Origin: a virus
DNA length: 64,000 bases
Virus record (IMG/VR): IMGVR_UViG_3300025759_000076
Span: 10,609-74,608 of that record
Reading direction: 5' to 3' (one strand)
Part shown: in pieces, positions 59,250 to 64,000 of the stretch
How the letters are laid out: each line of letters begins with the position of its first letter
Position numbering within the stretch: position 1 is the first letter of the stretch
Translations under genes and position numbers: made by a program
Notes under the pieces: model-generated
What the model saw: the letters and a program-made list of their open reading frames with translations, nothing else
Told to the model about the DNA's origin: nothing
The model's database searches: none

Positions 59250-59311
59250 ATGTGTTACTTACATCACTGTGTTCTGATTACATCCACCTCCCTTTTCGTA
59301 TCCGTTGACTA

Positions 59312-59782
59312 TCATAGTTTAAGTCCTTCTAAAATAGTTCCCTCAAGATTAGCATCCTCAAGGTTAGCAAACTTTAGATCAGCACCCTTAAGATTAGCAC
59401 CCTCAAGATTAGCACCCTTAAGATTAGCATCCTTAAGATTAGCACCCTCAAGATTAGCGCCACTTAGATTAGCGCCACTTAGATCAGCACCCTCAAGATT
59501 AGTATACCTTAGATTAGTATACCTTAGATCAGCACCCTTAAGATTAGCATTCCAAAGATTAGCGCCACTTAGATCAGCACCCTCAAGATCAGCACCCTCA
59601 AGATTAGTATACCTTAGATCAGCACCCTTAAGATCAGCATCCCAAAGATTAGCGCCACTTAGATCAGCACCCTCAAGATCAGCACCCTCAAGATTAGTAT
59701 ACCTTAGATCAGCACCACTTAAATCAGCATCCTTAAGATTAGCACCTGGTTTGATTTCGTATCCGTTGTATGTGGTGATCAT
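59312..59782 (-). CDS. Pentapeptide repeat protein
   Basis: Uninterrupted A(D/N)LxG repeats. Confidence 0.92.
59340..59745. repeat. 15-bp tandem repeats with a 90-bp higher-order duplication
   Basis: 59521-59610 and 59611-59700 are near-identical; basic unit like agattagcaccctca. Confidence 0.9.
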
Positions 59783-59800
59783 AAAATTGTGGTGTCTATA

Positions 59801-59833
59801 CTATAGTGGTCAATTGGAGGTGAGTAACTATAA
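59801..59833 (-). repeat. Early-region ~35-bp element, copy 1
   Basis: ctatagtggtcaattggaggtgagtaactataa upstream of the pentapeptide gene. Confidence 0.9.
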
Positions 59834-59852
59834 CACCCACCTCCCTATATGT

Positions 59853-60469: not shown

Positions 60470-60738
60470 CAGTTGTCCTGTGTGTTTGTTGGGCGCATTG
60501 CTTTATTTAAGTCATCAAGAAAAGCTTCCGTGAGAAAATAAGTCTTGTAATAATCTTCTAATAAGTAATCATCAGTATTAGTTTTTAACCACTCAACCAC
60601 CTGCTCCAACTGCCAATCAGCAGCGGCTCGCATCTCGATGTAGTCGTGTTCCGATTCGAGAGGGAAGGTCACAAGTCCTTCGCAGATCTTGTCAGTCAGT
60701 GGGTGTTGGTTGGACATGTTTGTTTGAGTTGTATTCAT
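60469..60738 (-). CDS. Hypothetical protein (AAADWQLEQV motif)
   Basis: ORF track; directly downstream of repeat copy 2. Confidence 0.75.
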   Translation of the reverse strand: MNTTQTNMSNQHPLTDKICEGLVTFPLESEHDYIEMRAAADWQLEQVVEWLKTNTDDYLLEDYYKTYFLTEAFLDDLNKAMRPTNTQDN

Positions 60739-60739
60739 A

Positions 60740-60774
60740 CTATAGGGGTCAATTGGAGGTGAGTAACTTTAATA
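60740..60774 (-). repeat. Early-region ~35-bp element, copy 2
   Basis: ctataggggtcaattggaggtgagtaactttaata. Confidence 0.9.
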
Positions 60775-60819
60775 GGTTGTATTAAGTGTTAATTAGTTTT
60801 TATACTAAATAATACTGTT

Positions 60820-60936
60820 ATGTGTTCCGCGAGTTCACTTATCGGCGCTTAAGTTATTACCACTGAACTCTCCTGCGGGGTAAAGAGTCAGATACAACTA
60901 AGCACAACCGGTAAGTAACGCATAGGAGAGACACAT
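60820..60936 (+). ncRNA. Candidate rod-like structured small RNA (~117 nt)
   Basis: End-to-end nested complementarity found by eye; TAAATA at 60806-60811; no long ORF. Confidence 0.45.
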
Positions 60937-60979
60937 CAGCAGACAATAGTATACAAAAGGTTTTTGGAGAGATATGCCT

Positions 60980-61025
60980 TAACTCTATTTTTTAGTGCGT
61001 ATATATAACACATAAAAATAGAGTT
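60980..61025. terminator. 12-bp-stem hairpin, possible bidirectional terminator
   Basis: aactctattttt...aaaaatagagtt between the candidate RNA and the convergent ORF 61034-61153. Confidence 0.5.
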
Positions 61026-61033
61026 TGTGCGAA

Positions 61034-61153
61034 TCAAAGCACAGATTTACGTTGACGCTTAATCTGTGAGGGGAGCACGGTGACTGTTACTTTAGTGTGA
61101 CCATTTGCTTTGAGAGTGTCAATGGTCTGTAGCAGTTGCTGTGTAGAACTCAT
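61034..61153 (-). CDS. 39-aa hypothetical protein (MSSTQQLLQTIDTLKANG...KRQRKSVL)
   Basis: Manual translation. Confidence 0.55.
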   Translation of the reverse strand: MSSTQQLLQTIDTLKANGHTKVTVTVLPSQIKRQRKSVL

Positions 61154-61197
61154 AGTTGGAGTAAGTGTTACTTAAGAGGTGTTTGAGTAGTGTTTAC

Positions 61198-61398
61198 TTA
61201 ACCGTGAAAATCTAACTCCTCCCAATCCCATTGAACGCCGTCTGGTGAACACTCAGGCTGATTCATAGATTTACAATAATTAACTGCTGCTTCTTGAGTT
61301 GAGAAGATTTTAGCAGCACGATTGCCTCTCAAAATAATTGTTTCACGAATGCTATCAGGGTTAGTGAGGAAAGGAAAGGTGATAAAGGCTGAAGTCAT
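61198..61398 (-). CDS. Hypothetical protein
   Basis: ORF track; downstream of repeat copy 3. Confidence 0.65.
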   Translation of the reverse strand: MTSAFITFPFLTNPDSIRETIILRGNRAAKIFSTQEAAVNYCKSMNQPECSPDGVQWDWEELDFHG

Positions 61399-61418
61399 AA
61401 GTCGATTGTGTGGTTACA

Positions 61419-61453
61419 CTATAGGGGTCAATTGGAGGTGAGTAACTTTAATA
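61419..61453 (-). repeat. Early-region ~35-bp element, copy 3
   Basis: ctataggggtcaattggaggtgagtaactttaata. Confidence 0.9.
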
Positions 61454-61494
61454 GACTGTACTTTGAGGGTTTCAGAGTATTTTGGGGGAGGGGG

Positions 61495-61523
61495 TTGACA
61501 TTATGAGAAAGGCCTGATATGAT
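61495..61523 (+). promoter_or_regulatory. Sigma70-type promoter toward the GIY-YIG gene
   Basis: TTGACA-17 nt-TATGAT. Confidence 0.7.
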
Positions 61524-61662
61524 ACGATCTTACGTAACAACAACTGAAGGGCTTTATAGGCATTTCTACAAAACACTTAGCTTATATTTATTATACCATT
61601 TCTCAAAGGTTTCAATCAATATTCTATCACTAAATAACACCATTATATCAAAACAAAGTATA

Positions 61663-62451
61663 ATGGAGACTGGGCTAATCTATACCATCATTTGTAAGGC
61701 CAATAAGAAGCGATATATCGGACAAACTGTAAAGAATGTAGCGACACGTTGGAAAGAACATTTGAAAGAAAGTGTGAGGAATGAGAGTAACCGACCATTG
61801 TATAATGCGCTCAAAAAGTATGGTCAATCGATGTTCAATATTCGTATCTTAGAAGAGGATATTCCCGTTAGTAAGTTATCAGAACGTGAGGTCTATTGGA
61901 TACAACAATTCGACACATATAACAGTGGTTATAATGCAACAACTGGTGGTGAGAGGAGTTATACATTTAGAGAGGATGTGAAAGAAAAGATATCATCTTC
62001 TATGAGAGGATTACAACGTAGTGATGAGACAATCAAGAGGCATAAGTTAGCTCAAAAGAAAAGAGAAAATCACTTTAGCGTAAGGGGAGATGGTAAACAC
62101 CTTAGAGTAAAGATTAGGGCGACATTGTTATCAACTGGTGAAGTCTTTGACTATAACTCATTGACTGAATTCTGTAAAGAGACTAACATCGCAAATGGTA
62201 ATGTATCAAGGGCGATAAAACGTGGGCTCACATGTGGTGGATACAAAGTGGAGCGGATTAGCGACAATTTGAATAGAATTGGTTGTGTTGGTTATGATTG
62301 TCAAACTGGACGGATGTTGCATGAGTTTAGGTCAATGAGACAAGCTGGGTTAGTGTTAGGAGGTCAAGGAAAAGGCATATCTAAATCTATCAACAATCCA
62401 GGATTACGCTCTTATAAAGGTTGTTACTGGTATAGCTGTTGTTCTCTCTAA
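61663..62451 (+). CDS. Free-standing GIY-YIG (Seg-like) homing endonuclease with NUMOD-type DNA-binding repeats
   Basis: GLIYTI...RYIGQT, RWKEH, EREVYWI, GYNATTGG; start reassigned to METGLIY; opposite strand to neighbours. Confidence 0.9.
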   Translation: METGLIYTIICKANKKRYIGQTVKNVATRWKEHLKESVRNESNRPLYNALKKYGQSMFNIRILEEDIPVSKLSEREVYWIQQFDTYNSGYNATTGGERSYTFREDVKEKISSSMRGLQRSDETIKRHKLAQKKRENHFSVRGDGKHLRVKIRATLLSTGEVFDYNSLTEFCKETNIANGNVSRAIKRGLTCGGYKVERISDNLNRIGCVGYDCQTGRMLHEFRSMRQAGLVLGGQGKGISKSINNPGLRSYKGCYWYSCCSL

Positions 62452-62929: not shown

Positions 62930-62966
62930 GATGGGTGATTGTGTGGGATGCCGTATGGCGGTTACA

Positions 62967-63001
62967 CTATAGGGGTCAATTGGAGGTGAGTAACTTTAAT
63001 A
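62967..63001 (-). repeat. Early-region ~35-bp element, copy 4
   Basis: ctataggggtcaattggaggtgagtaactttaata. Confidence 0.9.
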
Positions 63002-63016
63002 CCAGGGCCCTATGTG

Positions 63017-63736: not shown

Positions 63737-63838
63737 GATTAAAAGAAGAAAAAAGATTTAGTGGTGATGAGTTCAGTGAAACAAACTCTCTGAAGCAATC
63801 TTAAAGAGAATAGAGAGTGAGAAGACTGAACCCTTACA

Positions 63839-63873
63839 CCTATGTGGTCAATTGGAGGTGAGTAACTTTAATA
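63839..63873 (-). repeat. Early-region ~35-bp element, copy 5
   Basis: cctatgtggtcaattggaggtgagtaactttaata. Confidence 0.9.
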
Positions 63874-64000
63874 CCATTGATTGGTTTGTATCAAATAACT
63901 ACGAATCTCATTATATGCAAACCTCTGTATCTTAACATCAGTTGCATTATCTAATACCTCATACATTCTCTGAATATATTCACTCTTCGTTGTCACTGGT
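63868..64000 (-). CDS. 3' end of a hypothetical protein (...SEYIQRMYEVLD...QTNQWY)
   Basis: Open frame from the window edge; its TAA lies inside repeat copy 5. Confidence 0.6.
   Translation of the reverse strand, partial: PVTTKSEYIQRMYEVLDNATDVKIQRFAYNEIRSYLIQTNQWY

Follow-up and report, generated by a model that had tools for sequence, protein, structure and literature searches.

In T4-like phages the hyperplastic early regions are as a rule taken for strings of ORFan protein cassettes, and the RNase III processing hairpins of phage early transcripts, of which R1.1 of phage T7 is the type, are irregular long hairpins with internal loops that lie between early genes. To our knowledge, very few non-coding RNAs of cyanophages are known, the main example being CfrI. 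This RNA is described as a cis-antisense transcript of about 225 nt, encoded by cyanomyophage S-PM2 between psbA and F-CphI, whose expression has been demonstrated (Millard et al. 2010, as cited in PMC5931967). T4-type phages also carry PeSLs, composite terminator-promoter cassettes whose stem-loops are short, G+C-rich and present many times per genome (PMC2839356, PMC4122927).

The element described here, a rod-shaped inverted repeat, comes from a T4-like Synechococcus myophage, where it is central to a self-contained, ~220-bp non-coding cassette within the mosaic early region. It is real, conserved and modular, it has a rod-like RNA fold that is undescribed in Rfam, and the rod module is a probable new phage non-coding RNA element. 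The cassette is without a convincing protein and yet is conserved, is shuffled like a gene and has a late promoter. If expressed as a discrete RNA, it would provide a tractable example of an accessory RNA with a regulatory role, from a Synechococcus phage lineage that is abundant in estuaries and freshwater, as well as a new candidate RNA family.

The source phage and its early region

The stretch of DNA analysed (the window, 64,000 nucleotides) is part of a 74.6-kb viral contig with genes for a T4-type gp6 baseplate wedge and for HNH and GIY-YIG endonucleases, a 4043-aa ORF and numerous small ORFs. Among isolates, DNA matches were to Synechococcus myophages only, the best being to S-SKS1 (Llyrvirus), at 96% across one small gene, with weaker matches to S-B43, RB11-B, RN05-S and Sf-FR1. 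The source is a fragment of a T4-like Synechococcus myophage with S-SKS1-like stretches. Nearly all genes of the contig are carried by the minus strand, and from 59.8 kb to the contig end the sequence is organized as cassettes of small ORFs, each of which starts with one of five near-identical elements of ~40 bp, the early promoter cassettes of Table 1.

Several features of this region deserve mention in their own right. In the first copy of the early promoter, as in many contigs from metatranscriptomes, the spacer sequence CTCACCTCC base-pairs with GGGAGGTGGGTG located upstream, giving a PeSL-like stem-loop that overlaps the promoter. An 89-aa ORF on the minus strand has its ATG (60738) directly against the -10 TATAGT of a promoter cassette, so that the ATG at 60717 (82 aa) is more likely to be the true start. 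A pentapeptide-repeat gene on the minus strand (59280-59789, 156 aa) appears as 22 overlapping repeats with a 15-nt period, and it also gives rise to a spurious 234-aa ORF on the plus strand. Finally, a GIY-YIG homing-endonuclease gene (61495-62451, plus strand, ATG at 61660) lies in the opposite orientation to all of its neighbours and is preceded by a near-consensus sigma-70-type promoter (TTGACA, 17 nt, TATGAT, 61495-61523) and by a late CTAAATA at 61630. Because this gene is found nearby in just two groups, the window's own lineage and that of L028, the idea that the rod is a homing-endonuclease target or relic was dropped.

Table 1. Positions of the rod, its module and neighbouring features in the window
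Feature	Position	Strand	Description
Rod core	60820-60936		117-nt imperfect inverted repeat, one interrupted hairpin on either strand; conserved in 14 variants
Extended rod	60799-60956		Two outer helices added by the relatives' consensus fold
Non-coding module (cassette)	60787-61004 (approx.)		~220 bp; homology to group-2 relatives starts and stops here, flanks unrelated
T4-type (gp55) late-promoter core, CTAAATA	60805-60811	+	Faces into the rod; predicted start ~60817-60820
Five early promoter cassettes	59791-59842, 60730-60781, 61409-61460, 62957-63008, 63829-63880	-	-35-like GTTACT, 17 nt, TATAGT at the end; invariant spacer CTCACCTCCAATTGACC
Early promoter cassette, copy 2	60730-60781	-	-35-like GTTACT, 17 nt, -10 TATAGT; downstream limit of the module in the window
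A/T-rich hairpin	60980-61025		12-bp stem; only the rod-proximal arm lies within the conserved module, the far arm is missing from group 2
Hairpin antisense to the 39-aa gene	61053-61172	+	-47.5 kcal/mol on plus versus -18.6 on minus, z -4.6
Candidate 25-aa ORF	60937-61013	-	Its stop codon and the first base of the rod overlap; in group 2 the ORF has 36 aa and another N-terminus

A rod-like fold in a gap between genes

A gap free of called genes, put at about 260 bp in a first-pass annotation of the sequence, spans 295 nt (60739-61033) and holds only an ORF of 25-33 aa. Within this gap, positions 60820-60936, the rod, do pair from end to end, as that annotation had proposed, and form one interrupted hairpin on either strand. 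The fold is more stable than that of shuffled sequences, with energies of -33.6 kcal/mol on the plus strand (z -2.7) and -37.6 kcal/mol on the minus strand (z -3.3), and in both cases 0 of 200 shuffles were as good. By energy alone the rod is notable, not exceptional: when the contig was scanned from end to end in 120-nt windows, it did not come among the 40 most extreme folds.

When the whole window was compared with Rfam 15 at the gathering score, no family matched, whether 6S, Y RNA, tRNA-like, riboswitch or cyanophage and marine motif, and the rod is without a known RNA family. The best matches of a permissive local Rfam scan had E values of at least 0.8 and amount to microRNA and snoRNA noise, and ARAGORN found no tRNA or tmRNA. 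At the rod a promoter and terminator scan called no site, the sole nearby match being a weak 5-bp hairpin after the 39-aa gene. The rod is not confined to its core. Its extended form has two further helices on the outside, which reach into the late-promoter core at one end and into the last part of the small ORF at the other. One helix of a competing fold, from which a two-state switch had been suggested, is not conserved: CTCTCCT/AGGAGAG is broken in most relatives, where the second arm reads AGGACAG or AGGACAA. A plus-strand mini-ORF (ATG-CCT-TAA, after GGAGAG) was also considered and rejected, its ATG not being conserved.

A module with changing flanks

Relatives were retrieved from viral and metagenome contigs by means of the flanking 66-aa protein and three short DNA anchors, and this search recovered 14 distinct sequence variants of the element, 89-100% identical, in other contigs of both kinds. 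Alignment shows that the flanks of the module are non-homologous between contigs, with two upstream contexts and at least four downstream contexts. Upstream, in the minus sense, group 1 has the same 39-aa gene as the window, and group 2 has a different gene followed by a strong intrinsic terminator (a C5...G5 stem and a T-run of five to seven) and then an ATG. Downstream, the module is followed by the repeated early promoter, by a variant of it, by a directly following gene or by the leader of a 51-aa gene. An empty site for this last arrangement is present in contig L012, where both flanks are joined precisely without the module (TTCACA followed directly by GTCCGCAATGAC), and only ACA is shared between the filled and the empty site. 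The non-homologous flanks and the precise empty site indicate that the module is a unit of its own. Judged from these alignments, it behaves like the shuffled cassettes of the early region, but without a convincing gene.

The module is single-copy in the genome fragments searched, namely its own contig and two related contigs of 60-70 kb, in which a covariance model built from 12 variants found no further copy. The same model found no remote homologue in the corresponding loci of S-SKS1, S-B43, RB11-B, RN05-S and Sf-FR1 or in module-less relatives (best E = 0.26), and a blastn search of the gap against 50,697 phage records gave no match. Matches to two viral contigs, L049 and L051, proved to be chance matches in an unrelated phage. 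Nor does the module have the hallmarks of a MITE-like or mobile element: it is single-copy, its junction shows only the 3-nt ACA microhomology, and no clear terminal inverted repeats were seen by eye. The element is restricted to a narrow clade and absent from the loci searched in the five isolates named above. In S-B43 an unannotated ORF takes the place of the rod in the equivalent gap; this ORF, of ~75 aa (L045:1600-1830, minus), occupies part of the 400 nt that the annotation leaves empty between genes. With so narrow a distribution and no carrier isolate, the immediate value of the element is limited.

Two assemblies show further arrangements around the module. A 1283-nt metagenome contig (L030; 1194-1283 and 514-773) has a second, partial copy 680 nt from the first, a distance of one cassette's length, which reflects a tandem duplication of the cassette or else a loop in the assembly. 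A contig joint from 60771 to 61410, seen in RNA runs X15 and X17, may be a cassette-less form or an artefact of the repeated promoter.

A late promoter facing into the rod

The sequence [A/C]TAAATA is found 14-40 nt upstream of 17 late genes in the contig and, on the plus strand, also in front of two further ORFs, one of them the GIY-YIG gene, which identifies it as the late promoter of the phage. The TAAATA at 60806-60811, already picked out as a late-promoter core in the first-pass annotation, lies inside a CTAAATA (60805-60811) and can be accepted as a true core: it shares its motif with the 17 late genes and is placed for an RNA start at the foot of the rod. Of the 13 variants checked, 12 have CTAAATA and one, L017, has CTATATA; the sequence just beyond the motif varies. 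The element thus has a late-type core upstream of it, as is characteristic of a T4-type late transcription unit. In group 2, moreover, the module directly follows a strong sense terminator; sense read-through should be low there, and a promoter of its own would be needed.

The first-ranked reading, favoured only tentatively, is that the element is transcribed late, from the plus strand, as an antisense RNA. The gp55-type promoter would start this RNA at the foot of the rod late in infection, the first 117 nt would fold into the rod, and a conserved, mostly single-stranded stretch of ~70 nt would follow, the whole being antisense to the early cassette. The rod may then serve as a 5' stabilising duplex, or as a duplex recognised by a protein or by RNase III. 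The conserved ~70-nt flank may be the working single strand, and it, or pairing with the sense early transcripts, could do the regulation, in the form of early-transcript shut-off late in infection.

Inside the module there is no convincing terminator on the plus strand. The 12-bp-stem hairpin reported earlier at 60980-61025 is present, but it is limited to one of the two context groups: its rod-distal arm lies outside the module and is missing in group 2, and it is therefore not a conserved terminator of the proposed RNA. A strongly plus-strand-specific hairpin antisense to the 39-aa gene (61053-61172) is found 117 nt past the rod, and only two 120-nt windows of the contig have a more extreme fold. 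It is kept in 9 of 11 aligned sequences, a core of ~11-12 bp persists in the S-B43 and RN05-S sequences, and one of its pairs (position 53/108) occurs in G-U, A-U and C-G states. This hairpin may be part of the same antisense transcript as the rod. The earlier proposal of a late antisense RNA stands in part: its promoter is valid and conserved and a plus-strand hairpin does lie beyond the rod, but there is a mild preference for the minus strand in wobble pairs, in the compatibility of pairs and in raw energy.

The case for the minus strand

It is possible, if less favoured, that the functional strand is the minus (sense, early) one, on which the rod would be an intercistronic or 3' element of early transcripts or else part of a sense small RNA of ~170 nt. 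In the former case it would be comparable to an outsized PeSL stem-loop and would stabilise the transcript, be cut by RNase III or terminate weakly before the next early promoter is reached. In the latter case the RNA would start from a weak promoter of early type within the module (GTTACA, 16-18 nt, TAGAGT) and end in a U-rich run past the extended stem. The pairing pattern among the variants points this way. Over the same 55 pairs, 95% of cells are paired on minus versus 82% on plus; variable pairs that are tolerated on one strand only number six for minus and two for plus; and five G-U pairs are invariant on the minus strand. One compensatory pair in the rod occurs as C-G, U-G and U-A, several other states are G-U on the minus strand only, and in the outer helix of the extended rod the changes from A-U to G-U and from C-G to U-G keep pairing on minus only. 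Raw folding energy is also lower on minus in 12 of 13 variants, but composition-corrected z-scores do not separate the strands and so do not favour minus.

The surroundings of the rod provide evidence of a different kind. The neighbouring genes are all on the minus strand, and two DNase-treated marsh metatranscriptomes from one study, runs X15 and X16, contain contigs, without strand or end information, that span 60746-61439 and 60855-61439 unbroken and join the rod to the upstream sense genes; these contigs end at repeated promoters, as expected from assembly. No contig of RNA runs X17 and X19 covers the rod, an absence that is uninformative on expression because contigs drop low coverage and the phages are mosaic. 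The 5' edge of the module falls on a hexamer similar to GTTACT, the -35-like element of the repeated early promoter, and TAGAGT does not vary, yet the internal promoter is weak (8/12 to consensus), its spacing is variable and it is without the invariant spacer of true early cassettes. At the other end, a U-rich run does follow the extended stem, but no terminator-like site is called at the rod, and the base of the stem is A/U- and G-U-rich. Since the group-2 module lies just past a strong sense terminator, a plain 3'-UTR role fits poorly, and transcription of the minus strand would leave the conserved CTAAATA unexplained.

Constraint on the rod and its origin

Variable sites were compared in five syntenic sequences. 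They make up 11% of the rod columns and 9% of the 97 nt preceding the rod; the corresponding values for third codon positions are 28% (19/67) in the 66-aa gene and 50% (20/40) in the 39-aa gene, both of which have a clear coding pattern. With the window's own fold as reference, 9 of 31 unpaired positions in the rod are variable versus 9 of 86 paired positions (p = 0.02). Evidence from these alignments that selection acts on rod structure is good but not conclusive, because recent spread of the module could equally lower divergence. Formal covariation was not significant, the observed score being reached in 315 of 500 shuffles, because sequence diversity among the variants (at least 89% identical) is too low. 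That the shape of the rod is conserved while its loops are variable points to recognition of the duplex, whether for stability, by RNase III or by a protein, rather than to a loop seed.

The rod itself probably originated, to judge from its sequence, by inverted duplication of a leader/junction motif. Its 3' arm reads TAAGTAACGC (TAAGTAACAC in most variants) and then ATAGGAG, which is this motif in inverted form, and the leader motif TAAGTAACAC, with 0-1 mismatch, otherwise occurs nine times on the minus strand between 59252 and 63493. Copies of TAAGTAACAC stand mostly shortly before early-gene start codons, and the motif is one base different from the late-promoter context CTAAATAACAC. On another reading the rod acts at the level of DNA or is an evolutionary scar, a quasi-palindrome derived from TAAGTAACAC-ATAGG... 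by such a duplication; it would lack any function as RNA and would be maintained or spread by recombination within the hyperplastic region. The cassettes of the region are shuffled at repeated motifs, the empty site of L012 shows ACA microhomology, and the low divergence of the module could have come from recent spread and not from selection. L012 has, in addition, a second small insertion (1490-1560), a CTGGG...CCCAG hairpin between direct repeats of ACTAAGTAACAC, which suggests that indels of the region arise by leader-motif recombination. A purely DNA-level explanation is nonetheless unlikely: variation is concentrated at unpaired positions, changes at paired sites mostly preserve the pair, bulges and G-U pairs would make a poor cruciform, and the rod is intact in 14 variants despite recombination within it.

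A more far-reaching proposal, and a rather improbable one, is that the module is a gene for a non-coding RNA which brings its own promoter and travels as a separate cassette between the early regions of cyanophages that circulate together, and that the rod duplex is the active part, either as a decoy or inhibitor of a host dsRNA-recognising nuclease or defence protein or as a late switch that destroys early transcripts. A decoy role of the rod RNA is pure speculation. If the proposal were true, a mobile, promoter-bearing non-coding RNA cassette would constitute a new class of phage accessory 'RNA moron'. Least probable of all is that the module is a tiny protein gene on the minus strand (25-36 aa, with the C-terminal part ...IYALKNRVKAYLSKNLLYTIVC) and the rod its 3' hairpin, for although 4 of 5 substitution events in the 23 shared codons are synonymous third-position changes (a bias with p only ~0.045) and the group-2 ATG stands directly after a G-rich stretch, coding is doubtful because a 2-nt indel breaks the frame in L036 and the N-terminus is non-homologous between groups 1 and 2, while a longer group-1 ORF is ruled out by an upstream 2-nt indel, the start codon lies within a hairpin, no ribosome-binding site was seen, and 117 nt of conserved rod would go unexplained.

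Comparison with known systems

By analogy, the rod would resemble RNase III hairpins of the T7 R1.1 type in being irregular, long and interrupted by internal loops, in lying between early genes, and in keeping its shape while its loops vary. It is about twice as long, however, and its host is a cyanobacterium. The likeness to PeSLs is one of setting, in that the rod, too, is found in a hyperplastic early region, has a repeated early promoter just downstream of it and stands among neighbours that are shuffled by recombination at repeated regulatory motifs, and the five repeated promoter cassettes near the rod do fit the PeSL idea. The rod itself is not a PeSL: at 117-158 nt (117 nt for the core) it is irregular, single-copy and conserved as a module that is separable from the promoter, being found with or without one adjacent to it, and it has no called terminator-like site.

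The promoter in front of the rod has the [A/C]TAAATA core of a T4-type late promoter (TATAAATA, gp55), at the start distance seen for 17 late genes; at the rod, however, it has no ORF behind it and points in the opposite direction to all neighbouring genes. With respect to CfrI, the comparison is one by description, as CfrI is presented in the citing article. CfrI lies between psbA and F-CphI and its expression has been demonstrated, whereas the rod lies among early ORFan cassettes and the rod RNA is a candidate with a predicted strand. Read as a late antisense RNA, the rod transcript would share with CfrI the character of a T4-like cyanophage non-coding RNA antisense to its neighbours, in a region that also harbours a free-standing homing endonuclease gene.
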